DNA of 64,000 nucleotides from Psilocybe cubensis. Taxonomy: Eukaryota. The stretch lies in the NCBI GenBank assembly GCA_017499595.2, contig CM038999.1:4216001-4280000 (forward strand), written 5' to 3'. Below the pieces are notes generated by a model. It did no database searches and had not been told where the DNA came from. It saw only the letters and a program-made list of their open reading frames with translations. Made by a program: the position numbers and the translations under genes. Positions 10,272 through 64,000 of this stretch are shown here, piece after piece (the first letter of the stretch is position 1; every line of letters starts with the position of its first letter).

Positions 10272-11852
10272 CTAAAACGTACTGTTTATTGGAATATGAA
10301 GAGTCGCACTTGCCAATGTTGCTCGAGCAGCTGCTGGGTCAAAGAAGAATAACCCAGAGCGTGCCTCGTCAAAAAGAAAGTCCGAGAACGAAGCATGATA
10401 TATTCGCAGTGGCTCGTTTCGATCCTTGGAGACATAAATGACCGAATGCAAGTCGCAGAGAGCAATGTCCACCATCCCTGGCTGGAGAGAGTAAAAAATT
10501 TCAATCCCCGCTGCTGTCGGGGATACGAGGGTGTGGTTTACCAAAAATAATACGACCAAGATCTTGAACACATTTTCAAGGTTATCGACTCCTAGTAAGA
10601 TATGACGGTAAAGAGCGTCCAATGCGGCAAATGGGGCATCCGAAGAGGGGACTGTTTGTTCCAGGATATACGACAGTCTCATGGTGGGTGAATGCCGGCG
10701 TGATCCAACATATTTCATGACTGTGGATGCATAGATGAAATGGCCTCGTGCGTGCATCATGAGCGCGCTCATTTCCTCTTTAGACGGCCACTGTGATGGG
10801 ATGCTACTTCCAGCAGGATGATTGATTTTGATTTTCTGGAATTCTGACTGAAGAAATGATCTGATATCAATATCTGTATCGTCGGTGAAATTGTCCAGAT
10901 TGATGCGTTTGGTAAATGAAGACAAAGGTTCGTCATTGAACACTTCCCGAATGACTTGTTCAGGTCGACAGGAGACAAATACCGAGATTGGTATCGTGAG
11001 CTGGGTGATTAGGGAGAAAAGCAGGTTGAGTATATGCCTATGCTCCTCCGACGAGTCACATTCATCCAAACCATCGACGACGATTAGATATGGAGCTCTT
11101 GATCTCCATGCTGCACCTGTGACCTCGTCGAGTGCCGCGGAATTAATGGGGTTGATGATCAATAGCTGCATCTGAATATCCAGCGATAATGAGAATATGG
11201 AGGGATCATTGGCCACTGCGTCCAATACAATCTCTCGAGCTTCAGGGAATGACTTCATAAGTTGGTACGCAAGTGTAGCTATAAACGGGGTCTCGGAGTG
11301 CCGGTTCTGTACACCTCGTGAAAAGAAGAAGCTGGCCACCAAACTGCCCGATTTCCAACACAACTCTGAGAGCGTTTGCGCTATCGCCGATTTTCCTACT
11401 CCCGCAGAACCATACAGCCACATGATTTGTGCCCAGGCGTTCTTGTCTTTTAACCATGTTATGATGTCGTCAAGGATTGCTGTGCGTGTGTTTGCGTGGC
11501 ACTTTGGAGGATCAAACCGTTCAGCGGAGTTGTGAAGTGCTCCAGGTGTGATGTTTGAGCAAAATAGCTGCAATGCTGCACAGTGACTACCAGATACGGT
11601 ACACTGTGAGCATCGTGTGCTTACAAATGTCCCTCCGGTGATGACGATGTTGCATGCACTCTCGAAGGACATATGGAACGAATGTGGGGAAGTTGTAGCT
11701 GCTTTGATCGCCATACAGTTGGTTTTACAGGTCCCAGACGGCAGATTTGCGGGAGTTTTCTCATTGGGTCTGTCTGTATAGCAGTTGTAACTTCTCACGG
11801 TGGCGACGTAATAATCAAGCTGTGTTGGAAGGAAAGTTTTGCCATTGGACAT
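10272..11852 (-). CDS. Fungal NACHT (NLR/NWD2-like) P-loop NTPase; likely start at the MSFESAC Met (~11672), possibly spliced to a further exon near 10239-9889
   Basis: GALHNSAERFDPPKCHANTR N-terminal motif, Walker A GSAGVGKS, SFFFSR, Walker B IVVDGLDEC, SCRPE, GHFIYAST, LDALY, YHASFSDFL. Confidence 0.9.
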   Translation of the reverse strand: MSNGKTFLPTQLDYYVATVRSYNCYTDRPNEKTPANLPSGTCKTNCMAIKAATTSPHSFHMSFESACNIVITGGTFVSTRCSQCTVSGSHCAALQLFCSNITPGALHNSAERFDPPKCHANTRTAILDDIITWLKDKNAWAQIMWLYGSAGVGKSAIAQTLSELCWKSGSLVASFFFSRGVQNRHSETPFIATLAYQLMKSFPEAREIVLDAVANDPSIFSLSLDIQMQLLIINPINSAALDEVTGAAWRSRAPYLIVVDGLDECDSSEEHRHILNLLFSLITQLTIPISVFVSCRPEQVIREVFNDEPLSSFTKRINLDNFTDDTDIDIRSFLQSEFQKIKINHPAGSSIPSQWPSKEEMSALMMHARGHFIYASTVMKYVGSRRHSPTMRLSYILEQTVPSSDAPFAALDALYRHILLGVDNLENVFKILVVLFLVNHTLVSPTAAGIEIFYSLQPGMVDIALCDLHSVIYVSKDRNEPLRIYHASFSDFLFDEARSGLFFFDPAAARATLASATLHIPINSTF

Positions 11853-27217: not shown

Positions 27218-27377
27218 ATGTCAGTAATCGAGGGCTCTAACGTACTTGTCAAGCTTCGCCAGTCGTATAATGGCCTCTATGCGGGGTGCTACGTATCTGT
27301 CATGTCAGTTACACTGCTGGTTATCTCTGCTTTCACGGCTGGCCTCACTCTCACTCTCACTCCAGGCTTTACGGGGT
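27218..27377 (+). pseudogene. DUF6534-like paralog 3, truncated 12 nt into exon 2 by telomeric repeats
   Basis: Exon 1 MSVIEGSNVLVKLRQSYNGLYAGCYVSVM, intron 27304-27365, exon 2 start LYGV (as in both paralogs), then TTTAGGG repeats. Confidence 0.85.
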
Positions 27378-27405
27378 TTAGGGTTTAGGGTTTAGGGTTT
27401 AGGGT
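27374..27405 (+). repeat. Telomeric repeat tract (TTTAGGG)n
   Basis: Four perfect TTTAGGG units, G-rich strand on +. Confidence 0.95.
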
Positions 27406-27688
27406 GCCCAACGAGCAGCGAGCGAAGCGAGCTGCGAGTTGGTTAGAAAAGGCTGGATGGCCTAAGGCTTGTGGACAAAAGTGGGGGCTTGGAGAAGCTC
27501 CCTTCCACTTTTTTGCCTTTTTATAAGGCTCATCAGGTCCATATATAGCCATTTTACCTATATTAATCCGAGGTCCGAAGTTAAAGAAACCTCGGAGCGA
27601 GTTTTCACCTTTGTTGTTCCGAAGTTTGGCAATTTCTCCGAGGATTAGTAATATCTCCGAATTTTAAACTCCGCTTGAATTTCGGCTT
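27406..27688 (-). mobile_element. Short 5'-truncated 3' end of a Penelope-like element (family A)
   Basis: Lies between two telomere tracts. Same order (GA hairpin, then hammerhead) as the RT-linked element at 27736, but with different primary sequence. Confidence 0.6.
27466..27550 (-). ncRNA. Type I hammerhead ribozyme with G12->A core substitution (probably inactive)
   Basis: Minus strand: GGCU-AUAUA-UGGAC CUGAUGA GCCUU-AUAAA-AAGGC AAAA AAGUGG...CCACUU UU GUCCA-CA-AGCC. All three stems pair; GAAA reads AAAA. Confidence 0.8.
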
Positions 27689-27735
27689 GGGTTTAGGGTT
27701 TAGGGGTTTAGGGTTTAGGGTTTAGGGTTTAGGGT
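27689..27735 (+). repeat. Telomeric repeat tract (TTTAGGG)n
   Basis: About six units, one TTTAGGGG variant. Confidence 0.95.
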
Positions 27736-27799
27736 GGGAGCGAGCACCGAGCGAAGCGAGGTGCGAGCGACTAGTTTAAACTGTGAGTTTGAAGATAGA

Positions 27800-27875
27800 A
27801 AGTAGGCCAGAGGGCTGTTTGGGGGTACAAACGGCCAGCCCTTTCGTCTTTATAGACTCTTCAGTGGCTATACTT
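27800..27875 (-). ncRNA. Type I hammerhead ribozyme, intact core
   Basis: Minus strand: AAGUA-UA-GCCA CUGAAGA GUCU-AUAA-AGAC GAAA GGGCUG...CAGCCC UC UGGC-C-UACUU. Predicted cleavage between 27810 and 27809. Confidence 0.92.
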
Positions 27876-28384
27876 AGAAGGAATGTTCTGGAACATCCGA
27901 TGACAGCGCGTGAAGTGATGCTGCGCAGCTGTCATGTATCTTACCGACTATCACAAATCTGTCAATGTTTATTGTCAAGTTAGACAGGTTTCTGATGAAC
28001 AGAGTGTCACGGGTCGATGTGGCACATGGTAACCTGTCAAAAGTGGATCCAACACTTTTGTTCTTTGACATCGTGGGTTATTGACTGTGATGTGAATCAC
28101 ATGGATACAGAATACTCTGGTTACGTGGCTCCGAGTAACCATGACATGGGAATATTCTCATGTCAAGAGTATAAATAGCTTACCTGGGTCCTTACCTAAC
28201 AATCAAATGATTGATTGTTGTGAATCTTAATTGGCAGTTCATGATCCGGTCCATCAAAAATGTTTCCACGGTACTAAGGAACTTTTCCCGAAGTACTAAG
28301 TAACTTTTCCCATGTACTAAATTAGATCCGGCCCTTCACAATCACATGCCGTTCGGAAGTTCACACGCCTACCTTACTTCCTAC

Positions 28385-28460
28385 TAAGGTTAGACTTAGT
28401 TAGCTTAGGGTTGGGGTTAGGTTAGGACTTAGGGTTTAGGGTTTAGGGTTTAGGTTTAGC
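28385..28460 (+). repeat. Degenerate plus perfect telomere-like repeats inside the PLE 3' region
   Basis: TTAGGG/TTGGGG/TTAGG variants followed by three TTTAGGG-type units. Confidence 0.8.
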
Positions 28461-28571: not shown

Positions 28572-29377
28572 TCATCGGTTGTAAGATTTGGATATTCTGC
28601 CAAATTCTGGATGTTCCCTCTCTTGTGAGATTGAACGTCTATGAAGTATTATCTTGTTATCACTTTCGATACTTATCTGTTCAGCAGCTTCAACTAGAGC
28701 AGAATGATAAGTTTCATTAACGTTTTGAGTTTCGGGAACAACACCACCTTTTTCGGCAATGTCTTCATCCAGTTTACGAAAAACTGTTTTCTTCCACACA
28801 TTTGCAAGGTCGAAAAGATTAGTATTGCGTTTTTGCGATACTATCCAACGACTTCCGAGTAGTCCTATCTTCCTCAAATCCGGTACGAACTCAGTTTCTC
28901 CGTCCACGAGGATCTGTGTGAACAGCTCCGGGCGAACATCATCGAGGTCGTGAACGTAATTTGGATCTGGTTTGATAAGGGGTCTGGACGAGTCTGCACT
29001 ATACAGACCTTTCTCGGCATGTTCATACCATGCCAACCAGTACTCGGTAACAGTCTTTCCAAGTTCAGCAGCTGAAAACCAATTCCATACCTGGTCAAAT
29101 CTGGTTTTAAGTACAAGAATGGATTCGTCGTGCTCTGCAATTCGTAAAGCGAATCGCTTTTCCCAACGTTCTTGTATATTCTTCTTACACCAAGACATTA
29201 CTAGGTTTTCGGGATAGCCGCGCACCAAATAGAGAGCGTTAAGGTCTCTAATTGCTCCTATGTAGATTTCCTTAGTACTACACAACACGGCTAGCCTGGA
29301 TAACTCTCCAATGTAGACGCCACGTTTGACGTCCAAAGGATGATGTGATACCCATGGAACTTGTTCTCGGTTGTTTC
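28572..29377 (-). pseudogene. C-terminal (thumb) part of a Penelope-like reverse transcriptase; catalytic N-terminal part missing
   Basis: VPWVSHHPLDVKRGVYIGELSRLAVLCS...LYLVRGYP matches the PLE S.HP..K....E..R....CS...RGYP signature. No GIY-YIG motif visible downstream. Confidence 0.8.
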
Positions 29378-30560
29378 CTAGGCTTATTCCCCCCTGAAGG
29401 GGGGGCCTTCGTTGCATTGGGCCTCCTGTTCAGAAATCCTAAAATCTGATGCCAGATTCGGATTCCTGGACCCCAAAAACCCCCAAATACACTTTCAAAA
29501 TATTTTATTTTGTACATACGGAGGTGCTACGTAATTAAATGTGTAATTTATGGAGGCCGGCCTCCAAATTGATGGAGGCCACTGGAGGCCGGCCTCCGTC
29601 TAAAAATAACTTTTGACAGGCACTGGAGGCCGGCCTCCGTCTAAAAATAAATTTTTGACAGGCACTAGAGGCCGGCCTCCCGCCTGTCTCCCGATGCCAG
29701 TGCTCGCCGTCCCAAAGCTTGCGCTCGCCGTCCCAACGCCAGCGCTCGCCGTCCCAAAGCTTGCGCTCGCCGTCCCAACGCCAGCGCTCGCCGTCCCAAC
29801 GCTTGCGCTCGCCGTCTGCCCGACGCCTGTGCTTGCCGCTGCATGTTGTTGCGCTGCCACCTCCGGGCCGCTGCTGCTGCCGCCACCTCCACTCGACGCC
29901 TGTCGTTCAGCCGTCACCGCGTGTCATCCCGCCGTCGCCGCCTGTCGTCACGACGTCACCGCGCGTCGTCCCGCCGTCGCGTCTAGTCGCCGCCCACCAC
30001 AACACGCACTCTGCTGCGTGTTGTTGCGCCGTCACACCGGACCGCCGCTGCCACTGCCGCCTTCCCTCGCCGCCTGTCATTCCGCCGTCAGCGCGTGTCG
30101 TCCCGCCGTCGCCGTCTGTCGTTCAGCCGTCACCGCGTGTCATCCCGTCGTCGCCGCCTGTCGTCACGACGTCACCGCGCGTCGTCCCGCCGTCGCGTCT
30201 AGTCGCCGCCCACCACAACACGCACTCTGCTGCGTGTTGTTGCGCCGTCACACCGGACCGCCGCTGCCGCTGCCGCCTGCCTCGCCGCCTGTCATTCCGC
30301 TGTCAACGCCTGTCGTCCCGCCGTCGCCGCCTGTCGTCACGACGTCACCGCGCGTCGTCCCGCCGTCGCGTCCACTCGCCGCCCACCACGACACGCACTC
30401 TGCTGCGTGTTGTTGCGCCGCCACACCGGGCCGCCGCTGCCACTGCCGCCTCCCCTCCCCGCCTGTCATTCCGCCGTCGCCGCCTGTCGTCCCGCCGTCG
30501 CCGCCTGTCGCTGCCGCCGCGCTGCCTCTACTCGCCTCCTGTCGCTGCCATTTCGCTGTT
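29378..30560. mobile_element. Repeat R copy 1: hairpin-ended Helitron/Helentron-like terminus, GGAGGCCGGCCTCC palindromes and GC-rich minisatellite
   Basis: CTAGGCTTATT-C6-TGAA-G7 start. The first ~250 bp are shared with 39941 and 49608. Right boundary approximate. Confidence 0.65.
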
Positions 30561-30788
30561 TTGTCTTTGATACACCTTGGCCTTGCTGTACTGTAATTTT
30601 GTTAGATTTTTTATAACTAGTCATCTTACCCTGATATCAACTTGTGTATATCTCACGCGAGCTCTCTTGTGTAGACACCAAAAAATAAATTTATATGACA
30701 TTTTGAACAAAAAAACACGCATATATCTACATATTTTTGTTAGAATGGGCTATTCTTAAATGAAAAAACACTTACATTGACAATGTAA

Positions 30789-33700
30789 CTACAGGCCTGG
30801 GCAAACACGATAAGTTGGCACCACCGGTACGTGCCCGTTGACAAAGGCCTGAGCTCGTTGAGACGCTGCCGCCAGAAGCTTCCTACTGGGAGGAGTGCCG
30901 CGCAATATTGATTTCCATTGCACTCTTGTTAATGGCTGGGCCTGCCGAGTGCGGATGTCTTCTACGCGTTCACGGTACCATGCCTCGTTGGCAGGCGTCC
31001 ATTCCACCCATTGTGATCCGTTCATGCTGGGGGGCACCTGCCACAGGTTCGGGGGAGGGAACCACGATTTTACAGTTATTTGACCTTTAGTAGCTGAGAA
31101 AAATGTTGTTAGTGCATAAAATTGAGAATAAACAAGGAAAACATACCTGTGTACAGCGTGTAGGTGCCGCATATAATGGACAGCTCGTTCTCCGTGAGCT
31201 GGTCGTCGCAATAACACCAAGTCGTGTCGCCAGCTGGCACGATGAACCCCTGCCGGTTCTGAATGATTTCCTTAGAGGGGCCAGCCAGCCCATCGTCGAC
31301 GCTCAGAAACTCACTGGCTATCCTACCCACCAATCCACCCCTCAGCAAGGCAGCCCGACCGTGTTGTTGGTGTTTGATGATGTTCTCGCATTGCAATCGG
31401 TATGCTTCGAAGTCATCAACGCCAAATTTGTACGCTGACGGGCGGACAGATCGAGGGGTGTATGGCTCCTGGACAGTGGAGCAGCGACCCGACATTTCAA
31501 TGCCCATGAGAGTGCGACAGGGCACACCTCTCTCCAGCAGCATTTTTGTGAGGGAGTCGATGCGAGCCCAGGAGTGCTCTAACCTGAGCCGACACACGTA
31601 GAGGGCGATCTCCGCCGTTTCGACACCCAACATCCACTCGTGTTCCTCTGAACGAGGTTCTGAAAAAACAAAAAGATTCTGGTGAGGGCGGTGTATTTGC
31701 GACAGGTCCAGCAGACGAGACAGGGATGTCAGGCTGTGCGTGTTGAGATCAGACAGGGCGGCCGGCATTTCTGTGCTCGCAGGCTCGATGGAAGCCATGT
31801 AAAACATGTGGATATGTTGTCGAGCGTCCAGGGCAACTTCTGGGGTAAGTAACTCTGTAAACCCAAAGGTTTTGACAAGTTCATCCCAGTCTGACGCGGC
31901 GCAGGCTGTCGTCGTTGTGCCAGGGAGGTATCCATAGGATTGGCGCAGGCATCTGACCATATCGTTGTCGGGTGTAATGGGCAGGGGTTGCACAACATCC
32001 GTGGCGGGCGCGTCCGTGGTCATCTCAACATCCGCATTTTCATCCTCAACAGATGGGCCTGGTTCCTCCATCTCGAAATCTTCGACGACGGCAGGGGGGC
32101 TCTGTTGGACCCGCGACTCGCTCTCTGGGGAACGACGTGCTCGTGGGCGAGAGCGCGTTGCAACCTCTGGGGGTGTTGGCGAGCGACTGCGCAGGCGCCG
32201 TCCTAGCGTGGGCCGTGGGGGTGTTGTGGGTGCGCGGCGGGGTCTATCTCGCGATGACGAGGGTGTCGGAACCTCAATGACAGGCGGGTTGTTTGGAGGC
32301 AAAGGGGGTGGGGAAGGATTACGAGCGGGGGGAAGGGCCGACGTTGAGGCCACCGGCGCATCGGGGTCAGGTTCAATGGTGTCGTACCAGGGTACGCCTT
32401 CCCACTCTTCCTCGGCAGGTGCTGGTTTCGGGTGCTGCCTGGGTTGTTTTGCGGGACGTACACCTCTACCGCGGCGATGCTGGCCTCTAGCAGGCCTTGT
32501 CTGTGCCTGAATGCGCTGGTCCAACATCGCGGATGCGCCTGCCAACTCGGCTGGTGGTTCCAAATCTCGACAGAGATCCCATTCGTCTGTCACACCGTTT
32601 GTCAGGGTTTCTCCAGTTTCCCCTCTTTATCTTCACAGAATTATCTTATCCTTTCATTATCTTATCAATTATCTGATTAGATAGTTTATTTCTTTCATCA
32701 CAGCCTTCTTGCTCCACTTCTTTCTAGTAAATTCTATATGATTCCTAGTCTTACTCATCCTTTTTCTATATGATGTCACTTTTATTCTTTAACCTTCCTT
32801 TATGATGTAATGTAGAGAATATTCTAGAATAGCTGTAGAGTATAAATACTGGACTTGTAGGTAGCTGTAGCTTCAGCTTCAATCTCTTAGCATATCCACT
32901 ATCATTGGTGTGATCTCTTAGAACCATTAAATCTCTCTCACTCTCTTATTCTCTCTTTGCTCTCTTACTCTCCCTCTGCTCTCTCTCTTTCTCTCTTGCT
33001 TAATCTTTGTTGGTGGCCTTGTCACACTGATTATAGTGTTGCCCTAACACCGTTGTAGACCTTGCGGTGTGGGCGAAGTTTGGCCTCCTCGATGCTGTTT
33101 CGTGACGTTGCGATGTGTTCGCGCATGTAAACGCTGGCTCCCTCTGTGGACACCAGCGTTTTCCAGACAAATACTTTGCTACGTACCACCGATGGGTTGT
33201 TCTCTCGGTTCAGGCGAGCCTGTCTAGCTTCTGGCGTCTCTTTGGCCAGAATCCGTCGCCGTTCTTCCACCCTTGCAGCCCAGTAAGCGTCCCAGTCATC
33301 GTGCACAGAGGTCAGCAGCTTGTGGTTTTCATTCGCCAGTTCGATCATGCGCAGCGTAGGCAGGTTGGCGCTGTCAATGGCGAGCTGACGCTGTTCCTCG
33401 TCTCTCTTTTGGAGCTTTTTTTCCAATTCTTCATATGGCTGGGACATGTGCTGATCCAATGCCTCTGAGTTGTGGGCGAAATCGTTACTGAGGATAGAAT
33501 ACACCAAAGTAGTGGAGTACTCATCTCCCAGCGACTTCATCGTGAGGCCCTCCGTCGAATGAGATTTATTAAAAAATTTGCGCGCAAAGGCGGCTGCGAG
33601 AGACACGTCCATAGACTTGAACAGGTCGGTAAGTGTTGCCGCCAACAAGTCGCGCGGGGGGCGAAGCTCGAGATTGAGTATTTTGTGGGTGAGGAAGATT

Positions 33701-34536
33701 TCCTCTTCCCGCATCCGCCACGGATAATAGACTGGAACATGGTGTTCCAGAAGCCATTCGATGGGAGGGCGTGTCGCGTGGGTGCTGCTCAACTCGTAGA
33801 CCATGCCGACACGAGGGGTTCTGGCGTTAAACGAAAATACGTTGGAATGATACAAGCCATCCAGCCATACTTCTGAGATGTCAGGATGCTCAGCGCGGAG
33901 GCGTTCATGCCATGCAGGGACGGGGCTTTTGGGATCGTGCTTGATGTGCTTTGAATAGATCTCGCGACGACTTTGGGCGACGAGATACGACAGGTAGCCC
34001 ATCCACAGGATAAACGCGTTTCGGGTGGCCTCAAAGCTCCTTTGCGCGTCTGCTTCACAGCTATACCTGAGATCATAACCGAAGCTTTTGGGGCTAGGAG
34101 GTGGGGTTCCAGGAACGCGACACCATAAGCGGATCTTTTCACACAGAAGGGTGATGTTTTCATCCAATTGGCGCCATTCTTTTACGCTGTGCCACTCCAT
34201 TTCATACGTGGCCGGAGACTTGTGCGGTTTATTGCGCAAAATCTTTGGAGACCAGCACAAAAAATTAAACGGCAAGGACACGAATGATGGCGCCAAGGGT
34301 ATGAAGGCGATCCACCTGTACTGATCGTGCCAGCGCACTGGCTGTTTGACGCCCTCTAAATCCAGGTCTCGTCGCCGAGGTTCTGCTCGTGTCGCCTTTT
34401 GTTCGAAGGGGTTGGTGACGTCGACCTCAGCGGGTGGGATGATGACGACACGCTTGCAGTTGGGGGACACGTATATGGTGCCCTTCTGGACAAACGCGGA
34501 CCCTTGGGCCCAATCAATGTGGGTTTGCTGGGACAT
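30789..34536 (-). pseudogene. Large (~1080 aa) agaric hypothetical protein gene interrupted by a solo LTR; intron 31146-31094
   Basis: Removing 32600-33049 plus one TSD fuses the ORFs in frame (KVYNG-VTDEWDLC). C-terminal motifs GRAALLRGG, DD.LTENE..IICGTY, SWFPP..W...WTPANE.WY. Confidence 0.75.
32600..33049. mobile_element. Solo LTR (450 bp)
   Basis: TGTCAGGG...CCCTAACA termini, perfect 5-bp TSD CCGTT (32595-32599 and 33050-33054), AT-rich with TATAAATA. Confidence 0.9.
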
Positions 34537-34637
34537 CTGCAGCAGAGTAAGTAACAAGCATATGTGGGCAACGAACGTGAACACTTACGGTGGGGGCAGA
34601 GCAGAACGGTTAGGACGATGGCGATGGCCTTAGATGG

Positions 34638-39940: not shown

Positions 39941-40690
39941 CTAAGCTTATTCCCCCCCGAAGGGGGGGCCTTCGTTGCATTGGGTCTCCTGTGCAGAATT
40001 CTTGAAATCTGATGCCAGATTCGGATTCCTCGACCTCAAAAACCCCCAAATCCACTTTTAAAATATTTTATTTTGTACATACAGAGGTGCTATGTAATTA
40101 AATATGTAATTTACCGAGGCCGGCCTCCAAATTGATGGAGGCCACTGGAGGCCGGCCTCCAAATTGATGGAGGTCACTGGAGGCCGGCCTCCAAATTGAT
40201 GGAGGTTACTGGAGGCCGGCCTCCGTCTAAAAATAAAATTTGACAGGCACTGGAGGCCGGCCTCCGTCTAAAAATAAACGTGTTGAGGCCACCTGAGGCC
40301 GGCCTCGATTCGTACGCGCGTACAACACGCTAGTGGAGGCCGGTCTCCTGCCTGTGCTCGCTGCCCCAACGTCTTCGCTCGCTGCCCCCGACGCCTTTGC
40401 TCGCCGCTGCGTGTCGTTGCGCCGCCACCCCCCGGGCCGCTGCCACCTCAACTCGTCACCTGTCGCTGCCGCCGCGCCGCCTCCACTCGCCGCCCACAGC
40501 GACACGGCATTCTGCTGCGTGTCGTTGCACCGCCACCCCCACGCTGATGCCGCCGCTGCCGCCTCCCCACTGCTGCCGCCTCTACCACGCCGCCTCGTGA
40601 GTTGTTGTGTTCTGTTTGTTGCTCGACATCTTCACCGCCGTGCGCGGAGTTTGAATGTCCCTGACAACAGCAGGGACAAACAACAAGACA
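39941..40690. mobile_element. Repeat R copy 2
   Basis: CTAAGCTTATT-C7-GAA-G7, the shared core and ~31-bp tandem units with GGAGGCCGGCCTCC. Confidence 0.65.
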
Positions 40691-44737: not shown

Positions 44738-44902
44738 ACCACAAAGCACATATTAGCTTTGGTTAGGGTTTATGGTTTAGGGTGACCACAAAAATACATA
44801 TTAGGATGGTTTAGGGTTTAGGTTTTAGGGTTGGTTGGGATTTGATATACCACAAAAGCACAGATTAGTCCGGTTAGGGTTGGGTAGGGTTGGTTAGGGT
44901 TG
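44738..44902 (+). repeat. Degenerate telomere-like repeats interleaved with an ACCACAAA(A)GCACA.ATTAG unit
   Basis: TTAGGG/TTTAGGG variants in three blocks, each preceded by the ACCACAAA unit. Confidence 0.7.
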
Positions 44903-46640: not shown

Positions 46641-49607
46641 ACATGTCCTTCAAGTCGTTGGTAGAACGCTGGGTTGGATTCGGGCGGCGAGCGTGGTGTG
46701 CATCGCAGTGTGCAGTCTACACAACCCAGTTAGCCACTGTACAAACTACACTGTGCAAGACTCACCGAGGGCTGCGAATGAAAGTGGGGAACTCAGGGAT
46801 ACCCGGTCAGCTCTCCCCTCCTTTTATAAAATTCTGTACCCCTTGTATATCTGCATTAGTGTCCATGTTTAATGTCATGCTTTTCTGCCCGCAGTTCAAT
46901 GGGGAAATGTGCAAAACGACAACTTGTCGGCGCTAAGCGAGAGGTTGAGTGACATACTTGGTTCATCTTTTGCTCGATGTACATCTCCCCCTGTGTGTTA
47001 GATTTTCAATATTTGAGATTCACATGCTCGCTCTCAGAGTGTCGGCCTGAAACTTGACACTTTTGGAGTGTCATTGGTGTAGTTTCTGTTGCTCAATTTT
47101 AGGACAATGCCCGTCTAACCAAAAAACACACAGTCTGTTTTCTAGGTGTTTAATCGAGGAGAGCTGTGTATCTCCCATCGTATATTCTATTCCTGAGCTC
47201 TGTAAATCCTCTACGCAAGGGCTGATGACACACGCGTACTGGGTTATACAATATGGAGTGGGTATTTACACAGGAACAAGCTAAATTCAATCCGATTGCG
47301 TCGATCGCACCATATCGCAAGTGGAATTCAACGTGAACCACTTTCCATGTTGAAGAAATCTATGTTGCATTCCAGCATACGTAGCGCCGGATGTAAATCC
47401 GTGATGGACGGAGAATCCAGGGCTGAGCGAGAAACGAGCGTTTTGGAGCGCAGGAATTGGGAGAGTTGGGGATGGAGGAGAATGCCCTTGTCTGCATGTT
47501 GGTGCAGGTATGTTGCTGCTCTAATTTTTTTCCAGGATTCTGAGCTCGAGTTGGTCTATCTATTGCACCTCCAGCTGCCGCTCTCTAGCGCTCCTGAATT
47601 CCAGTTTTGTCTTATTTCATGCGTATTTGAGACGTTTGATGAGATATTCAAGAATCGTCAATGAGTTGAAGCGAATCTCGACCCCCTCACCTGTGTGCAA
47701 ACTCGGACTCATGGTAGCGTAATAATCCCTGTTTCAATCATTTAATTCAACTCAATTATGACGATAAACGCCGTTCTCCATGCAGAACTGCTGGGCATGC
47801 CTCGTTATGTTCACGGACTCTGGTCAGTGTTTCTTGTCTTCTCGTTTACATCTTTGCTGATAGGTGTCGTAACAATGTCCAGGAAATTCAGATTGTCGTA
47901 TACCTACAGGCGAAGCAATCGTTTGTAAACGAGAGATAGGGCAAATGGGGGATGGAGGAGGTATGGCAATCAAGATTGAGACCATCAAGTTCAGTAAGTT
48001 TTGGGAAGACTTTGTGTTTGTGAATTGATGTTCTACCTTTGACAATTTCATATAGAGAACCTTTCCGTGGCTTGGAGAGATACGACGCAAGATTTGCAGT
48101 TTTGCGCAAAGATTGAAATTGTGACATCAAGGTGTGCATCTTCAAGTTGTTGAACAACCGTCGACTATTCTTCATTCACAGAAATGGTAGTCATCACATA
48201 CCTTCTTCATTCATAGCACATACCATCTCGTACCAGGCCATTTCAGTCATCTACAAGCACGGGAGAAGCACCGGAATAACAGGGTAGGCTTTTCGTGCCT
48301 TCAATCTCGAATCGACTAATTGTCCATCTACCAAACATTTCAGCTCACATTATTTGCCTGAGTATGGTGAGATGCTGAGATACTCAGATGAGATACAGAA
48401 GAAACGGTGTTTGGAATGGAAAATATTGGCGAAGAGGGCCAGGAGGAACAGATTGGATCACTTGGACTCCAATGTACTCTGTTGGTTCCGCCGTTGGATT
48501 TGAGGCGGCATAGTCAGTGAATGGGTGAGCTCATTTAGTATACATCTGAATGACATACTTTTACCCTGTAATTGGTTCGTTTACACTGTTTGAACAGTGG
48601 TTCAACGGCGGCTAGGCAAATATCTCGAGAATCCGGTGAGTTTTTAATTTTCAAAAAATCTTTCAATAACGCATTTAAACTTGACTCTCAGTACTACCTA
48701 TACACCCATACTGCTGGATAACAGCTAAACCGCAGGGAAATGGGATAATAGAGCAAGGTATGCCATACCCATTCCTTGATTAAATGTATATTGGCATTCA
48801 AACCTTTCGGCCAATCTCGAATGTGTCTAGTCTTCACAGAATGTCGTGATACTCGCCCGAGATGCGGGGAGAATGCGTTTTTTACGCTAGAAACGACAAT
48901 TGGAGCTGGAGGACAAGACCCGGATGATATGCATCCGCGTCTGCTCGTCATCTTTGAAACAAACCGCGATTAGCTTGGGCTGTCGATACTTTATGTGTGA
49001 GTGGCTACTTTATATTGTATTTGACTACTTAATAAGCCTACTGGGCACAGAGAACACACATGGCAAGTGCAAAATACACGAATATTGTGGAAATGACGGT
49101 TTGGGCGCTTAACGAATGACAAGTTCAAATTTTATTCAGAGGTCTTTTAAAGTATGTACCCGTCTTCTAAATACCTACTATAACAGCTTTATTACAGAAC
49201 CACTCGTATATCTCTCGGAACAGCCGCAGATTCTCTGTTTTTTGAAAGGTACACATGAGCTGGAATCTCAACTTTGGAATGCGTTGAACTCGGGCTCACG
49301 GTGATACAGCGTTGAAACATCTCGATTTGTGTATCCCCGGATGCTCTGTCTGGAAGCAGGGATGGTAGGTAGAAGCAATAAATGTTCAGAATCGCAGGGC
49401 AGGAGGAGCGGCTAGGCTTTGGCGGAAAGGGATGTCATTTTCTTTCATTAGGTTTGAATAGAGTAGTCCAGGCTCTTTACAGCTGGAATAGTGTCTATAT
49501 ACATTTAATTCGTGTCAATCGACGTGAGGTGTAAAGGTGTTTGAGAACAACATGCCCGAATTTCAATCCAAATACTTATATTGATCGCTATGTACTAGAC
49601 TAATTCA

Positions 49608-50285
49608 CTAGGCTTATTTCCCCCCGAAGGGGGGGCCTTCGTTGCATTGGGCCTCCTGTTCAGAATTCCTGAAATCTGATGCCAGATTCGGATTCCTCGA
49701 CCTTAAAAACCTCCAAATCCATTTTCAAAATATTTTATTTTATACATACGGAGGTGCTACATAATTAAACATGTAATTTATGGAGGCCGGCCTCCAAATT
49801 GATGGAGGCCACTGGAGGCCGGCCTCCAAATTGATGGAGGTCACTGGAGGCCGGCCTCCAACTAAAACGCGAGTGGAGGCCGGCCTCCCGCCTGTCTCCC
49901 GACGCCTGCACTTGCTGTCCCGATGCTTGCGCTCGCCGCCTGCCCGACGCCTGCGCTTGCTGCTGCGTGTCGTCGCACCGCCACCTCCGGGCCGCTGCTG
50001 CTGCCCCGCCGTCTCCACTTGATACCTGTCGTTCAGCCGTCACCGCTTGTCATCACGCCGTCACCGCGTGTCATCCGGCCGTCGCCGCCTGTCGTCACAT
50101 TGTCACCGCGTGTCGTCCCGCCGTCTTGTCTACTCGCCGCCCACCACGACACGCACTCTGCTGCGTGTTGTTGCGCCGCCATCCCCGGGCCGCTGCTGCT
50201 GCCGCCCGCCTCCACTCGTCGCCTGTCGCTGCCGCCGCGCAGCGGAGTTTCAATGTCTTTTGACGACAGCAAGGACAAACAAAGC
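49608..50285. mobile_element. Repeat R copy 3
   Basis: CTAGGCTTATTT-C6-GAA-G7, the shared core and palindromes. Its distal CGGAGTTT.AATGTC...GGACAAACAA is shared with copy 2. Confidence 0.65.
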
Positions 50286-52530: not shown

Positions 52531-53604
52531 TGAAGATCGAAGTTTGTGATTGGTTATAAACTATATGTAATCCAACAAACACAAACTCCAGGGAAAGAGT
52601 GGTCCAGACTGGATAGGACGAAACCTTCTCCTAAGTTTCTTAAGGGAGGACGCTGCCTAGGATTTAAGTAGATTAGGATGGTGTGGATTGTGAAGGGTAA
52701 CGAAAGCGAAATAGTAAGAAGAGGATAACCGGGTCGTCTGGGTACGATAGTAAATAAGCCTTCCGAAAATGGGATGGAACCGTGGAATTGGATGGCGGGT
52801 GTATATGGAAAGCGTGAAGAAGATGCGTAGATTGCGTATGAGAAATCAATAAATGTGAATCTTAGAGGGGTTGTCTGAAGTGAGTGGGGAACGTTCCGAG
52901 GGGAGATGAGGAGATGACTAGGAGTTGGGATGTCGTTGAATGGCTGAATCTTGATAAGCGGATGGTAAAGGCAAAAGTGTCCTTAAATTGACAATCTTTC
53001 TGATGCTTGGAATGAAGCTATACGTCGCGGGAGTATCGACTGAATCAAGGGTGAAAGACTAAGTCTGTCTCGAATGAAATCACTCCAGATGAGTTGACGG
53101 AGGGAAAGAATGTCTTGAATACACTCCTAACGGCAATGGTTGGAAGGTGTAGAAGGAGTAGGAGCGGTGACAGATTGAACGGAGGAGGGAAAGTAGGGAA
53201 GTACTGGATGTCTGGATAGAAGTTGGATATTCAACGCTGAGAAGAAGAGGCGTTGGATGAGAAGGATGACTGGTCTCGGATGAAATCCTCTCTTAATGGA
53301 AAGCGAGATGACTTCGGATGAATGGAAGTAAACTTGGTTTCGACGGAGGGTGGAACTGATGACTGAAATAGACTTGGGTTTGGGCTTGGCTTGAACTTGA
53401 ACTTGGAATTGAAATGAATCGATGTGGATTGACTTGAAATTGACTTGACTTGGATGAAAATTGACTTGCTTTGAAGAAAGTGGGGACTGGGTGTAACTTT
53501 CCTGTCATTTCGTGTAATTCTACTACAGCTTTTATACTAAAAGCTACGTGAACGAAATACCAATCTGAGCTACTGAAAACCGAGTCATATACTGTACAAA
53601 GTGT
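52531..53604 (-). repeat. 3' LTR (part shared with the other LTR; the true boundary lies further right, before 54230)
   Basis: Aligns with 62384-63457 with only scattered differences. Confidence 0.9.
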
Positions 53605-54229
53605 CAAGAATGAGGCTACGCAAGTGTAACAATAAGCAAGAACAATAAGACATGTCGATATCGACACGACGACAGATAAGAAATGAATAGGATGAGTAAG
53701 AAAGAAGTGTATGACGAAGGTGAATGGTAATACAGATTAGATAAAAGAAGCAAGGATGGGTCAGAAAGCATAGAAGATTGGTAAGACAAAGACAATAAAA
53801 GCGCAAGAGACAATAGAAAAGATATATATAACACAAAAGGATGAGTAAGACAAACCAAAAATAAGTTGGAATGAGTAATCCGAAGCATGACGCTGAGTAA
53901 GACCATTGAATTGATAAAAATAAAGTTGACAGTCCGGCTGTGCAAGGCAGGGTAGAAAGCTGTGCAGTTTGATGTTTGACTGATCCGTCGCATAGCCTTG
54001 ATGATCCGACGAAGTGACATGATCCGGAATAACGTGGCTCCCATGTGACAAGTGTTGATAAGATAAGATGTGTGGATGACTTATGGAAAGAATGACTGCT
54101 TGGGTTGAGGGCGTCGTGTGTAGATCCAAAATGAACATCTCATCTCCAATCAGGATTGGGGTATGATATCCGTCCCAAACTTGAGAAATCAACCGTCCCC
54201 GGTTGCGGAAGGAAGGGGGGGGGAATAGA

Positions 54230-57200
54230 TTAGAAGTCGTCCATGTCGTCGCTCCATGTGTCTTCATCTTCCTCACTCTCATGTCCAAGTTCTCTGATCA
54301 TCCGGTCTAGCTGTGGTCGAGGAATGACTGAACCGTCTCGTGGAAAATAGTGAAGAAGTCGGAAAGCAGCTACGCCTTGAGCCAGTTGCGTACCATTAAG
54401 TTCTCTAAGCACATATGATCCTCCTCGTGTCTGTCGTACAACTTCGTAAGGTCCAAGATATCGTGGCTTGTGCTTGCGATTCATCTCCTTCTCAACTTGA
54501 CTGTTCCTGACTAGGACTAGATCACCAAACTTGAAGCTTTCTTGTCGAAGACGTCGAGCAAATCGTCGTTCAAAAGTAGCTTTGGATTGAAGTCGTGATT
54601 GTTTCAGAACGTCGGCTATGTTGGCTAAGTCTTCATCTCGTTTCATGAGTTGTCGAACACGGAGAGCTAAGAGATCTTCGGAACTCATTCCTTGTCGGAA
54701 TCCATCAACTAGAAATGTGGCTTCAAGGAGATCAAATGGAAGAACAGGATGAACACCATGCATGACGTAGAAAGGGGAATGTCCAGTAGAGCGTCGAGTG
54801 ATGCATTTGTCAGAGAAGAGTGTGTGATGAACGTACTGTGGCCAGTCTAGAGGTCGGTCGCCGCAAGCTTTGAGAATGGATTCACGGAAGTCAATGTGAC
54901 CACGTTCAATAGATCCATTGGCTTTAGAGTTGTAAGGAGAAATGCAAACTTGAGGAATGCCGTACTTTTCCATCAAAAGACTGAAAGCGCCAGAGACTTC
55001 TACTCCATTGTCTGTGCGTACAATAGCAATAGCACCATATCGGCATATGACTTCTTCCCAAAAGAAAGTGGCCAGCTCTTCGGAACGTAAAGACTTGAGG
55101 GCACGTCCTTCAGGTGCACGTGATAAGTCGTCTCGGGCTAGGACTACGTATCGGAAGCGTCCAGATTTGGGCATGTACATGACGTTGACATTGATGATAG
55201 TGAAGATAGTTGGGGGAGCTGTGATAGTGATAGGAACTTCGCTTTTCTTGGTGGATCTGATCTGACATTCATGGCAAGTAGCGAGATGATGCTTGATATC
55301 CTGAAAAAGAAATGGCCAGAAAAACCGAATGCGAATAACTCCAAACACACCGTATACTCCTCGATGTCCAAGTTCTTCATGAGCTTGAGTAAGAATGAGA
55401 CATCGCTTGTCTGGATCTAGAATAACCAAGAGTGGAGGTCTTCCTTGTCGTCGTCGATAGAGTTGATCATCTTTGAGATAGTACTGAGTAGCGCGAGCAA
55501 GGAATCGTCGTTGGGACTGCAAATTGGGAAAAGGGGGTATAGTTTGGTCTGTAAGAAATTGAAGAATTTGTCGAAGTGTCCGTTCTTGAGAAGAAGAAGA
55601 AGCAATAAAAGAAGGAAGCGAGATAGAGTCATACGATGGCATAGAAGAGGGAGTAAAAAGAAAAGTAGGGAAAAATTTGACCGTATTAAGAAGAGCAATA
55701 TCGTCGAGCCAGTCATCATCTTCTTGAGGTTCTTCTAACTCTTCAGAAGTTGGTTGTCGTCTTGAAAGTCCATCAGGTCCACGATGATTACCGGCCTTTA
55801 CATGGATGAGCTTGAAGTCAAAGAGAAGAATGCCTTGTATCCATCGATTCATACTAGCACTAGGCTGCAAGTCAGGCTGATTGAGCATGCCTTTGATGTA
55901 CTTGGCGTCGACTTCAACATAGAGGTTCTTGACTCCAATAAGATAGAGGCGGAATTCTCGAAGAGCACGGAAAAGACCATATAACTCGAGCTTGGGCTGA
56001 CTGTATCGTGCTTCTCGTGGATTAAGTGAGATAGAACCATAGCGGACAGGTCGTCGGATGCCTTCTTTGTCAAGTTGATAGAGAATGATACCAATAGCAA
56101 TGTGAGAAGTGTCCACAGCAAGAATAACTGGGCGATCGGATGAATAGTCAATAGAAGTGAGAACAGGAGGATTGGAAATGATTTCTTTGAGAGTTTGGAA
56201 AGAGTCTTCTCGTTGTTGAGTCCAGACAAAGGGTTCGTCCTTACGATAGAGTTCTGTGAGCGGTCGGACAAGGGCTGAGTAATTTCTGATCCAAACACGC
56301 ATTGTTCCGCATAGACCTAGAAAGGATCGGATGTCGTGAACAGACTTTGGTCGTGGCCAATCAGTGACTTTCTGTATCTTGCTCTGATCGGGTAGTCGTC
56401 CATCCGGAGTGCATAACTGTCCAAGAATAAGAACTTCAGGCTGAGCAAGCTGAGTCTTTGGTCCAGAAAATGTAGCACCAGCACATCCCATGCGATGCAT
56501 AACTCGATGAACATCTTGAGCATGTTCCCAGACAAATCGTCGTATTCCTGGATTTTCTGGAAGTGTTTCTGGATTGCCGTCCTCGTCTAAGTACTGTGTT
56601 GGAGGGCCTTTGATAGGAACATCGTCGATAAAGACATTGGCTACGTGAGGGATCTCATCACGAAGAATGAAGGTGGTATAGGCTTGAAATTCCGCTACTG
56701 CATTCGTATATCCCATAGGCATTGAAGTAAGTCGAAGAGGTCCAATAGGCGACTGGAATGTGGTAAGATCTCAGCTCATAGGATGGATTTTGCGTGCGTC
56801 ATATCCCCAATATAAGTCAAAGACCGTGTAAATAGAATGACCAGCAAAGGGAACCACAAAGTCGTCAAGAACTGGAGGAACTCCTGCGTCTCGATAGGAA
56901 ATAGAGTTAAGAATCTGCAGATCATGAACTAGACGGATAGCACCAGATGTCTTCTTCTTGACCCAGAAAATTGGAGAGCGATACGGAGCTTGGCTTGGTT
57001 CGTATACTCCAGCGTCTATCTTTTCACGTAAGAGACTGATAACTTGATCCTTGATGCCGGGTGGAATAGGAATATTTCGGACTACCCAGGGCTCGTGATC
57101 CTCAACAGGAAAGATGTATGGAGAGAAGTATTCTTCAGAAAATGTTCCACGTTCGGACTGATGAAAAGCGAGTGAGCGTTCATTGAGTTTAAGAATATGA

Positions 57201-57500
57201 AGGAAAAGCTTTTCTTCTTCCGGCCATAAGAATTTGTTGGCGTTAATGTTCATTGATTGTATGCGTTCAAGAGTGAGTCTGGTTGTTGGCGTAAAGGCAG
57301 GGGGATGGAGTGGGAGAGGTGGGAGAGATAATAAGGGATCAACAGGAATTCGTCGTATAACTTTGGCCGATTCTGGAGTAACCCGATTTATAGGTCTAAC
57401 TTTCCGATCGACTCGTTTATAGGCTGTATTGGCAGAAGAGGGGGAAAGAATAGGTGATATGAATTGATTCATGGAGGCTCGGAAGGTTGATAGTGTCGAT
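54230..57500 (-). pseudogene. pol (RT, RNase H, integrase) with an in-frame TGA at 56771-56773
   Basis: YKRVDRKVRP, VHDLQ.LN, FDLYWGY, HPMS*DLTTFQSP, PMGYTN, FIDD, LAVDTS, ELYGL, HHCC zinc finger, TDNG, GSIERGH, YLGPY. Confidence 0.92.
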
Positions 57501-58306
57501 CCTGACGCGGCAGTGAATACAAAACCAATTGTAGGAGAGCTTGACGACCTTGCCGAATTAGTTTGGTTGACGGTGGGTTTAGCAGTAATATCTGAATTGA
57601 GTGACCATGATCTCGCATAAATGCTTTGATCTATCCGAAATTTCTGTAGGTCTTGACCCATCAGAGGTAATGGAGTGGTCGTCCTTCTTATCTTGTCCGT
57701 AAGCTTGATTTTTCGCTCTTTGTGGATAAGATGAAGCCCTTCCCGATTCTGTAGGAGTTTGAGGTGTATTGGAGGCGTGATGGTGGTGTATATTGGAGAT
57801 AGAGATTCCGTATAGCATTCCTTTGGGAGGTTGCGTGTGTTTCTCCAAGAACTCTGCAATAGGTGACCTGAGGATTTGTTTGCGGACTGAAGTGGTAAAG
57901 CGGGGGTGGAACAAATAAATAAAAGGGAGGAATAAATAAAGGTTAGTTTAACGACTTTTCGGTCGACGTACATACAAATGGATAAAGTGGAAAGACAATG
58001 AAAATAAAAGGTAAAGGAAAAGGTTGTATGGCGTGGAGTTGCCATTGAGAGTGTGAATGTGAAGAAAAGGCGCATAAAAGAAAAGTGGAGGCGTTCAAGA
58101 ACTCGTTGCACAAATGAAAAATCTACATAAGTGTCCGTGAAATGAAAAAGAGAAACGCAAAATGTGGAAATAAAATAGAAGGTGGGATAAAGGCATAACG
58201 ATGAGGAAGAAGAAACAGCAAAGGTGACAAAGAAAAATTGAGGGGATCGGAGAACAAAGAGAGGGCGTTGAGGAAGCAAGCTGATGTCCATGCACCATCC
58301 AGATAG

Positions 58307-62188: not shown

Positions 62189-62363
62189 AGCGTAAACCAG
62201 TTACAGAGTCAGAAAGTGTTGCCTAGAATTGTTGCCTAAAGTTGCCTAGAGAATAGACCAGCGAAGTGAAATAACCTGTAAAGAAAAAGAGTCGAAATGG
62301 ATGGAATGGAAGTGATAAAGTGGTAGATTGCTGTGTTCCTAATACAAAATCCTAATTAACCCT

Positions 62364-62383: not shown

Positions 62384-63457
62384 TGAAGATCGAAGTTTGT
62401 GATTGGTTATAAACTATATGTAATCCAACAAACACAAACTCCAGGGAAAGAGTGGTCCAGACTGGATAGAACGAAACCTTCTCCTAAGTTTCTTAAGGGA
62501 GGACGCTGCCTAGGATTTAAGTAGATTAGGATGGTGTGGATTGTGAAGGGTAACGAAAGCGAAATAGTAAGAAGAGGATAACCGGGTCGTCTGGGTACGA
62601 TAGTAAATAAGCCTTCCGAAAATGGGATGGAACCGTGGAATTGGATGGCGGGTGTATATGGAAAGCGTGAAGAAGATGCGTAGATTGCGTATGAGAAATC
62701 AATAAATGTGAATCTTAGAGGGGTTGTCTGAAGTGAGTGGGGAACGTTCCAAGGGGAGATGAGGAGATGACTAGGAGTTGGGATGTCGTTGAATGGCTGA
62801 ATCTTGATAAGCGGATGGTAAAGGCGAAAGTGTCCTTAAATTGACAATCTTTCTGATGCTTGGAATGAAGCTATACGTTGCGGGAGTATCAACTGAATCA
62901 AGGGTGAAAGACTAAGTCTGTCTCGAATGAAATCACTCCAGATGAGTTGACGGAGGGAAAGAATGTCTTGAATACACTCCTAACGGCAATGGTTGGAAGG
63001 TGTAGAAGGAGTAGGAGCGGTGACGGATTGAACGGAGGAGGGAAAGTAGGGAAGTACTGGATGTCTGGATAGAAGTTGGATATTCAACGCTGAGAAGAAG
63101 AGGCGTTGGATGAGAAGGATGACTGGTCTCGGATGAAATCCTCTCTTAATGGAAAGCGAGATGACTTCGGATGAATGGAAGTAAACTTGGTTTCGACGGA
63201 GGGTGGAACTGATGACTGAAATAGACTTGGGTTTGGGCTTGGCTTGAACTTGAACTTGGAATTGAAATGAATCAATGTGGATTGACTTGAAATTGACTTG
63301 ACTTGGATGAAAATTGACTTGCTTTGAAGAAAGTGGGGACTGGGTGTAACTTTCCTGTCATTTCGTGTAATTCTACTACAGCTTTTATACTAAAAGCTAC
63401 GTGAACAAAATACCAATCTGAGCTACTGAAAACCGAGTCATATACTGTACAAAGTGT
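62384..63457 (-). repeat. 5' LTR, truncated
   Basis: Identity to the other LTR stops at ...ACAAAGTGT, where TAGGGTTTAGGG begins. Confidence 0.92.
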
Positions 63458-63490
63458 TAGGGTTTAGGGTTTAGGGTTTAGGGTTTAGGG
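63456..63490 (+). repeat. Telomeric repeat tract (TTTAGGG)n
   Basis: TTAGGG followed by four TTTAGGG. Confidence 0.95.
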
Positions 63491-64000
63491 GGGGAGCGAG
63501 CACCGAGCGAAGCGAGGTGCGAGCGACTAGTTTAAACTGGGAGTTAAAATGGAAAGAAGCCAGAGGGCTGTTGATTGATATCAGCAGCCAGCCCTTTCGT
63601 CTTTATAGACTCTTCAGTGGCTATTCTTAGAAGGAATGTTCTGGAACATCCGATGACAGCGCGTGAAGTGATGCTGCGCAGCTGTCATGTATCTTACCGA
63701 CTATCATAAATCTGTCAATGTTTATTGTCAAGTTAGACAAGTTTCTGATGAACAGAGTGTCACGGGTCAATGTGGCACATGGTAACCTGTCAAAAGTGGA
63801 TCCAACACTTTTGTTCTTTGACATCGTGGGTTATTGACTGTGATGTGAATCACATGGATATAGAGTACTCTTGTTACGTGGCTCCGAGTAACCGCGACAT
63901 GGGAATATTCACATGTCTAGAGTATAAATAGCTTACCTGGGTCCTTACCTAACAATCAATTGATTGATTGTTGTGAATCTTAATTGGACAGTTCATGATC
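63491..64000 (-). mobile_element. 3' end of another family B Penelope-like element (runs off the window)
   Basis: Closely similar to 27736-28245, including hairpin and hammerhead. Confidence 0.85.
63554..63628 (-). ncRNA. Type I hammerhead ribozyme, intact core
   Basis: Minus strand: AAGAA-UA-GCCA CUGAAGA GUCU-AUAA-AGAC GAAA GGGCUG...CAGCCC UC UGGC-UUCUU. Confidence 0.92.

Follow-up and report, generated by a model that had tools for sequence, protein, structure and literature searches.

A strand-asymmetric GA-rich hairpin between telomere repeats and hammerhead motifs at the 3' ends of what are very probably Penelope-like retroelements in Psilocybe cubensis

The window analyzed here is a stretch of 64 kb from contig CM038999.1 of Psilocybe cubensis, and all positions given below are positions within it. 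Near its middle and again at its right end, interstitial telomere tracts are joined to short retroelement-like sequences, which carry a GA-rich hairpin directly behind the tract and a hammerhead motif on the opposite strand. The features are the following:

27374..27404, plus strand: interstitial (TTTAGGG)n tract before hairpin A, G-rich strand, followed by the junction TG(C)
27408..27442, plus strand: hairpin A, CCAAC-GA-GCAGC-GA-GC-GAA-GC-GA-GCTGC-GA-GTTGG, the 3'-terminal hairpin of element A as read on the G-rich strand
27408..27685, minus strand: fragment of element A (278 bp), truncated at its 5' end and capped by the telomere tract that follows
27470..27545, minus strand: type I hammerhead of element A (GGAC-CUGAUGA-helix II-AAAA-long helix III-UUU/GUCC), recognized by eye from the sequence
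27689..27734, plus strand: interstitial telomere tract before hairpin B copy 1, followed by the junction TG
27737..27771, plus strand: hairpin B copy 1, G-GA-GC-GA-GCACC-GA-GC-GAA-GC-GA-GGTGC-GA-GC-GA-C
27737..28427, minus strand: element B copy 1 (B1), about 0.69 kb, ending at the degenerate telomere-like tract 28400-28460
27800..27875, minus strand: type I hammerhead of B1, core and helices recognized by eye, with a weak Rfam match
63457..63490, plus strand: telomere tract before hairpin B copy 2, adjoining the right LTR of a Ty3/gypsy element
63493..63527, plus strand: hairpin B copy 2, identical to copy 1
63493..64000, minus strand: element B copy 2 (B2), continuing past the window end
63553..63628, minus strand: type I hammerhead of B2

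The three hairpin sequences quoted in the first-pass annotation of this DNA matched the window exactly in letters and coordinates. That annotation had also described the features as retroelement 3' ends joined to telomere repeats, and the order of telomere tract, hairpin and minus-strand hammerhead was indeed found in A, B1 and B2. Elements A and B1 were arranged head-to-tail, each between telomere tracts and each capped by the next one. Read on the minus strand, the layout of the element RNA is 5'-type I hammerhead, a spacer of 20-75 nt, hairpin, CA and (CCCUAAA)n-3'. The protein-family matches of the window were NACHT/NPHP3_N, DUF4100 and G-alpha, which suggest fungal DNA. No reverse transcriptase (RT) of the Penelope type was found near the hairpins or elsewhere in the window.

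The hammerhead of element A is predicted to cut between 27477 and 27476, which on the RNA is 34 nt before the hairpin. With an A in the position of the catalytic G12, this copy is probably inactive. The hammerhead of element B is composed of helix I (AAGUAUAGCCA/UGGCCUACUU), CUGAAGA, helix II (GUCU..AGAC), GAAA, a long helix III and CUC/U; cleavage in B1 is predicted between 27810 and 27809, on the RNA 38 nt ahead of the hairpin. In its distal part, helix III has different letters in B1 and B2 and is complementary in both. With Rfam, the best match in the window was Hammerhead_3 at 27836-27884 on the minus strand (21.3 bits, E 1.1), to be read against a gathering score of 48.5; at gathering thresholds, the whole window gave no match.

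The 12-mer GAGCGAAGCGAG in the core of the hairpins occurred three times in the 64-kb window, always on the plus strand, where 0.25 occurrences were expected from dinucleotide shuffles, and a count of three was reached in none of 100 shuffles. Each copy of the 12-mer started 14-15 nt past a (TTTAGGG)n tract of the same strand. A hairpin stood behind three of the five telomere-like tracts in the window, and none was found behind the tracts at 28428-28455 and 44769-44830. Hairpins A and B have a 26-nt core in common that differs by one compensatory pair (G-C to C-G); their outer stems, CCAAC/GTTGG in A and G-GA-GC/GC-GA-C in B, are unrelated. The claim that the stems covary was thus overstated for the window, in which covariation is thin because the two cores differ by that single compensatory pair, and it held once the hairpins from metagenomes described below were added (16 among the matches listed).

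Further copies were collected by a metagenome scan with the pattern GGGTT(N)AGGG, followed by 6-36 nt and GAGCGNAGCGAG, which gave at least 120 loci. The inner GA pair, the GC pairs, the loop positions G and A and the orientation towards the telomere are dictated by the pattern, and free observations are limited to the stems, the outer loops and the middle loop base. Most of the matches listed were bacterial, with 45 of the 120 listed in a GGGAGGGGTTAGGGGTGGG repeat and 6 in GTCATYYY-core-RRRATC palindromes. At least two tandem telomere repeats preceded the core in 16 of the 120 loci among the matches listed, and for 13 of these 16 at least 120 nt of downstream sequence was present. A hammerhead core (TTTCG..CTCNTCAG on the G-strand) was found within 450 nt downstream in 9 of the 16 tandem-repeat loci among the matches listed, at a distance of 53-174 nt, compared with 4 of the other 104 listed loci, three of which (L067, L090, L117) have this kind of hairpin after telomere repeats that have degenerated. 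The complementarity of helix I could be read in the printed sequences of the metagenome loci, as could NUH triplets such as GUU, GUC and GUA, and the CUGANGA..GAAA core with helices I-III was recognized by eye in B1, B2 and 10 metagenome loci among the matches listed. The module was present behind TTAGGG as well as TTTAGGG repeats.

An RT was found with one family among the collected loci. L005 and L043 carry an RT open reading frame upstream, on the hammerhead strand (RVT_1, E 3.9e-7, 30.4 bits, cut-off 29.6), and this frame ends without an endonuclease (EN) domain. Its motifs are presumably those typical of Penelope-like RTs. In the atlas clusters nearest to it (score 0.97), RVT_1 occurs together with HTH_animal and in some cases also with GIY-YIG, a Penelope-like architecture; the L005 RT matched no PDB sequence at E values of up to 1.

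For the counts given below, hairpins A and B were combined with 16 metagenome hairpins among the matches listed that are symmetric around the core. Left out were L090, whose hairpin is identical to that of L067 and which forms one family with it; the branched or double hairpins of L005/L043, L111 and L045; L032, L100, L105 and L108, in which the core lies off the center of any symmetric hairpin; L023 and L060, which are bulged or of uncertain origin; and every locus without telomere context. The same pattern gave 17 loci in viral_contigs, with tandem telomere repeats in L121 and L124 only, and these two were kept outside the counts since they are not clean symmetric hairpins.

A GC-rich hairpin followed by CTAG or TTAG also resembles the 3' end of a Helitron, which consists of a hairpin and CTRR and inserts before a T, and the first-pass annotation had raised this as a caveat. 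In the window, the letters after hairpin B are CTAG-T and those after hairpin A are TTAG-A. The aligned span of B1 and B2, which includes the telomere tract before each copy and runs to the window end, is 94% identical. Rightward of CTAG the homology continues for about 480 bp, up to the window end, and on the left side the telomere repeats alone are in common, which is the opposite of what a Helitron would leave. The tetranucleotide is not conserved, as YTAG followed only 2 of the 18 hairpins (16 among the matches listed), and the motif is linked to telomere repeats and accompanied by hammerheads and an RT. Among 14 open reading frames chosen from the 20 of at least 200 aa in the window, no Rep/helicase family match was obtained. 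The Helitron explanation is exceedingly improbable and was rejected.

The hairpin is very probably a conserved 3'-end module of Penelope-like retroelements of the Coprina type, which lack an endonuclease and attach to telomeres. According to the available text of two sources, EN-deficient Penelope-like elements are attached to telomeric G-overhangs and bear reverse-complement telomere repeats at the 3' end by a hammerhead motif, and their copies are 5'-truncated, receive new telomere repeats as a cap and form head-to-tail arrays (PMC8557442, PMC6431247). In fungal copies the hammerheads are of type I and their helix III is long, as stated in the accessible part of PMC4209133. The elements of the window resemble Coprina of fungi, plants and protists and Athena/Terminons of rotifers, so far as these are described in the portions available, in the telomere-joined 3' end, the hammerhead and the truncated, capped arrays. 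They differ from the described Coprina/Athena ends, in which the available text places the repeats "immediately downstream" of the hammerhead (PMC6431247), in that a hairpin and a spacer intervene. The word "hairpin" occurred 0 times in PMC8557442, PMC4209133 and PMC13159263. No description of this hairpin was found in the literature searched; the primary papers (PMC1890498; 10.1093/molbev/msx159) lay outside the search, and an earlier description is possible. The telomere-hammerhead 3' end is thus known, and the hairpin between the two, with its DNA-type, strand-specific build, is apparently undescribed in the literature searched.

The build of the hairpin was analyzed outside the core that was fixed by the search pattern. 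On the G-rich strand, the 18 hairpins (16 among the matches listed) contained 145 Watson-Crick pairs and 18 tandem 5'-GA/GA-3' loops, with no other 2x2 loop. The same count gave 6 G.T, 0 A.C and 5 other mismatches, 4 of them purine-purine, under an extension rule that lets G.A and G.T through more readily than A.C. A strand-symmetric rule, which demands at least two Watson-Crick pairs past each loop and loses hairpins with GA blocks one pair apart, left 13 non-Watson-Crick runs, namely nine GA/GA together with GAA/GGA, G/A, GGG/AAG and T/G; none of the 13 was a pyrimidine-pyrimidine or an A.C run. A Py-GA-Pu context surrounded 29 of 36 tandem GA in the 18 hairpins (16 among the matches listed), each of which had one to four GA blocks spaced 1 to 10 bp apart. 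The hairpins were 29-49 nt long. Their complementary stems are non-repetitive and differ freely between families (GCACC/GGTGC, ACCAC/GTGGT, AAAAATC/GATTTTT, ACAATTGC/GCAATTGT, CACAACAATC/GATTGTTGTG). The GA/GA loops had been called constant, which held for the outer loops, the inner loop being fixed by the search pattern. The cap had been called invariant, which went too far: GC-GNA-GC was present in all 18 hairpins, though fixed by the pattern in the 16 from metagenomes, and the middle loop base varied (A in 13, C in 2, T in 1 and G in 1 of 17 listed rows).

The 6:0 bias in wobble pairs is small (one-sided, about 0.016) and is independent of the energy asymmetry described next; it could instead come from strand-biased C-to-T mutation. 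Hammerhead helix I was tried as a positive control for wobble pairs and discarded, because the wrong partners had been taken in at least L068, L005, B1 and B2, which made the tally (5 G.U, 4 A.C) unusable.

The fold had been proposed to be strand-specific and weak on the strand of the element RNA, and the calculations supported a markedly better fold on the G-rich plus strand. In each of the 11 hairpins that were calculated with RNA parameters, the G-strand had a more stable fold than the complementary strand (G-strand/complement in kcal/mol: A -18.9/-14.7, B -15.5/-11.0, L071 -17.9/-9.2, L026 -16.6/-10.3, L080 -16.4/-9.3, L068 -13.8/-4.9, L012 -13.8/-9.6, L117 -12.9/-9.4, L038 -14.7/-7.0, L067 -13.4/-5.7, L005 -28.6/-21.2). 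The G-sense z-scores ranged from -2.2 to -5.2; for the plus strand of A and B they were -5.2 and -4.2, and 0 of 200 shuffles were as good for either. With DNA parameters the G-strand fold was ahead in 6 of 6, with small gaps. Hairpin A reached -9.1 kcal/mol with DNA nearest-neighbor parameters (z -3.3, 0 of 200 shuffles as good) and hairpin B -6.3 kcal/mol (z -1.0, 37 of 200 shuffles as good), and with these parameters B, L071, L026 and L068 were no better than shuffles. Standard DNA parameters are assumed to miss mini-hairpins and sheared G.A pairs. The energy asymmetry is mostly a restatement of GA on one strand versus UC on the other.

GCGAAGC and tandem sheared G.A pairs, which had been put forward as stable DNA motifs, are documented as such in the available text of two sources. 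The heptamer d(GCGAAGC) has a Tm of 76.5 C, is nuclease-resistant, is more stable than its RNA version and is found at single-stranded DNA origins (PMC13037366), and consecutive CGAG blocks give stable DNA hairpins with tandem sheared G.A pairs by NMR (PMC10085684). The present hairpins resemble the d(GCGNAGC) mini-hairpin, described in the accessible part of PMC13037366 as two G:C pairs on which a sheared G.A closes over a single loop base, and the CGAG-block hairpins, which in the accessible part of PMC10085684 are C:G / G.A / A.G / G:C blocks in series; the likeness is one of sequence pattern. The known cases named in the portions of these sources available are phage and plasmid single-strand origins, a phage promoter, a human promoter region and synthetic oligonucleotides, and none of them is in a retroelement. 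The G-strand would accordingly be expected to form a GCGNAGC mini-hairpin as a cap that stacks on CGAG blocks (each with a C:G, two sheared G.A and a G:C), in alternation with freely varying Watson-Crick stems, while the element RNA would have UC/UC loops and C.A mismatches at the same positions and form a weak hairpin. The selected fold is probably the version on the G-rich strand.

Contigs from four public runs (four organism labels) were placed on 27300-28460 at 80% likeness. No variant letters were listed inside hairpins A and B, with hairpin A covered by run X1 only, and 10 variant sites and 5 indels were found in contigs of the 4 runs in the 62 nt past hairpin B (27773-27834). One X1 contig fused 27834 directly to the tract at 28429 and so represents a copy truncated inside the hammerhead. 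The hairpin could have no function of its own and be a relic carried along by copies amplified recently, or a simple repeat of the (GCGA)n kind whose self-complementarity, with GA mismatches, is accidental. Recent amplification could explain the missing variants, the inner parts of L068 and L012 are (GCGA)n-like, and part of the conservation is common descent, since A and B share their 26-nt core. However, the contigs that leave hairpin B unchanged do vary in the flank right after it, the stems between the GA blocks are non-repetitive and family-specific yet complementary, and the module follows both types of telomere repeat. A lack of function is very unlikely.

Conserved 3' hairpins of retroelements are usually RNA signals, which counts against a role in cDNA, and in R2 and the stringent LINEs 3' RNA stem-loops serve RT recognition. 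The minus-strand RNA hairpin with its UC/UC loops would in this case bind the RT and set the start of cDNA synthesis at the telomeric 3' OH, and the GA pattern of the other strand would be a by-product of the recognition of repeated GCUCG loop modules by the RT. The hairpin might in addition act as a template-boundary-like helix beside the CCCUAAA template. The template boundary helix of telomerase RNA is a comparable case: it adjoins the telomere-complementary template directly on the 5' side, in an RNA that serves a TERT-related RT. Unlike that helix, the present hairpin is read through by the RT, as the genomic copies contain it, and its RNA-sense helix is the weak one.

This serious competitor of a cDNA-level role, the strongest one, draws on the biochemistry of an EN+ Penelope-like element, in which the start of reverse transcription is located within an RNA stem-loop that follows the hammerhead (PMC11167929). 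In this element, PAc (Frangieh et al. 2024), the stem-loop is AC-rich and the start falls at 111-118 nt of the ORF, roughly 85-90 nt downstream of the hammerhead cut at 26 nt; cleavage is unnecessary (PMC11167929). The present hairpin, 20-75 nt past the predicted hammerhead cut, occupies an analogous place, shortly downstream of the cut, where cDNA synthesis would begin. The PAc stem-loop, however, is AC-rich RNA inside the ORF with non-homologous initiation at nicked AT-rich DNA (PMC11167929), whereas the present hairpin adjoins telomere repeats and has its stable form on the cDNA strand. The junction GGGTG before 10 of the 18 hairpins (16 among the matches listed) also suggests a defined start point.

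The folds of the RNA strand were divided on this matter. Those of A, B, L117 and L080 were better than most shuffles (z -3.4, -1.9, -2.9 and -2.5), whereas those of L068, L067 and L005 were no better than shuffles (z +0.5, +0.2 and +0.2) and those of L071 and L038 were weak. The RNA sense has 0 G.U versus 6 C.A mismatches in the 18 hairpins (16 among the matches listed), and the RNA-sense loop is not known as a stable RNA loop. The varying number (1-4) and spacing (1-10 bp) of the UC/UC loops fit a generic stacking module better than a fixed protein-binding geometry. Taken with the evidence on both sides, a signal at the RNA level alone is rather unlikely.

Transcripts of G-strand sense that run from the subtelomere to the chromosome end are known in general, and the G-strand fold may act there or elsewhere than in cDNA. 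It would then belong to a TERRA-like G-sense transcript antisense to the element, with a role in processing, termination or silencing, or to chromosomal DNA, as a hairpin in the lagging-strand template or as a cruciform. The strand asymmetry is equally explained in this way, and the G-sense fold is very stable with RNA parameters (z -2.2 to -5.2). The benefit for the element is hard to name, and the GNA triloop on C:G is the signature of a DNA mini-hairpin, the RNA form of which is less stable according to the available text of PMC13037366. Such a site of action is improbable.

From the strand signature we infer a function in single-stranded nucleic acid of G sense, namely the first-strand cDNA made from the telomeric 3' OH. 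Reverse transcription primed by the telomeric G-overhang copies the hairpin before any other part of the element, directly behind the telomere on the G-rich strand. It is possible, and tentatively preferred here, that the hairpin acts in this first-strand cDNA as a product-strand signal. The RNA template would be easy for the RT to open, and the first 30-50 nt of cDNA, once freed from the template, would adopt a compact hairpin fold where the old telomere meets the new cDNA. The fold may lock the priming event, by anchoring the enzyme or the product and preventing back-slippage on the repeated template, and it may protect the junction or exclude single-strand binding protein until C-strand fill-in. 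The cap motif is nuclease-resistant, as reported in the accessible part of PMC13037366. A retroelement family that encodes a structure for folding in cDNA, as an anchor, a lock or a protein-exclusion site, with the RNA template kept deliberately weak, is conceivable and still somewhat doubtful. The mini-hairpins of single-stranded DNA phage origins would be a parallel, and so perhaps would the bacterial repeats that also contain GAGCGAAGCGAG. Roles at the cDNA level and at the RNA level could coexist.

Telomerase has its closest relatives in the Penelope-like elements, of which those without an endonuclease engage chromosome ends in a manner known in outline only. Here a conserved module with a clear strand signature sits exactly at the point where cDNA starts, which makes the question open to simple experiments. 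If the hairpin acts in the cDNA strand, it would rank among the rare examples in which the structure of a reverse-transcription product is under selection, and it would provide a natural biological use for motifs known mostly from chemistry. If it acts in the RNA, the rule of internal initiation at a stem-loop, which comes from one animal element, would reach the telomere-attached clade.

Family B, a telomere-attached element family very probably of Penelope-like (Coprina-type) origin, spans window 27737-28460 and may be a non-autonomous element that is only about 0.69 kb long and whose 5' end is fixed. Among the four public sequencing runs whose contigs were compared with 27300-28460, the three runs other than X1 yielded contigs covering this unit up to 28426-28460, and in run X1 the summed contig depth over family B was hundreds of times the depth of the unique flank, a depth that is not equal to copy number. 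The spacer directly behind hairpin B contained GTTTAAAC in both copies (27772-27785 and 63528-63541). Its TAAAC was complementary to the GTTTA of the preceding telomere repeat, by which the helix could be extended by five pairs; this extension may be a chance match. In the copy of family A, the other telomere-attached family, the minus-strand hammerhead (27470-27545) carried C-AAAA in place of C-GAAA, that is, an A at the catalytic G12, and because of this replacement self-cleavage has probably been lost in this copy, as judged from its sequence.

Degenerate telomere-like tracts were also present at 28428-28455 and 44769-44900, and behind them the GA hairpin was absent and no hammerhead was recognisable. 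The ORFs past these tracts (28572-34584, minus strand) matched no Pfam family. The other features of the window were as follows:

10272-11852, minus strand: ORF with matches to the NACHT and NPHP3_N domains
29375-30536, 39941-40568 and 49604-50244: three related palindrome-rich tandem-repeat blocks of the GGAGGCCGGCCTCC type, 80-94% alike
52531-63457: Ty3/gypsy LTR retrotransposon, LTRs of 1,074 bp, 99.3% identical

The ORF is, by its predicted domains, an NLR-like protein of a kind frequent among fungi. Protease, RNase H and integrase domains were found in the ORFs of the Ty3/gypsy element, the right LTR of which directly abutted the telomere repeats that precede copy 2 of element B.

Metagenome loci from the telomere-anchored pattern scan were also inspected. 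At L085:290-324 (minus strand), (TTCAGGG)n repeats, a telomere-like unit of a different type, preceded a hairpin of 35 nt that shares its core with hairpins A and B. The metagenome contig L060 (922-1239, minus strand) gave two Hammerhead_II matches, one of 37.7 bits, which exceeds the gathering score of 37, and one of 34.6 bits; a mini-hairpin with a GTA loop lay within some hundreds of bases of them.

The 12-mer GAGCGNAGCGAG was also found within bacterial repeats of these loci. Palindromes of the form GTCATYYY-core-RRRATC with GAGCGNAGCGAG made up 6 of the 120 matches listed (e.g. L003, L022, L030, L053, L054 and L061), and the GGGAGGGGTTAGGGGTGGG-core repeat accounted for 45 of the same 120 (such as L017, L021 and L027). 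Since GAGCGNAGCGAG occurred in both types of bacterial repeat, the mini-hairpin together with its flanking GA recurs in unrelated repeated DNA.
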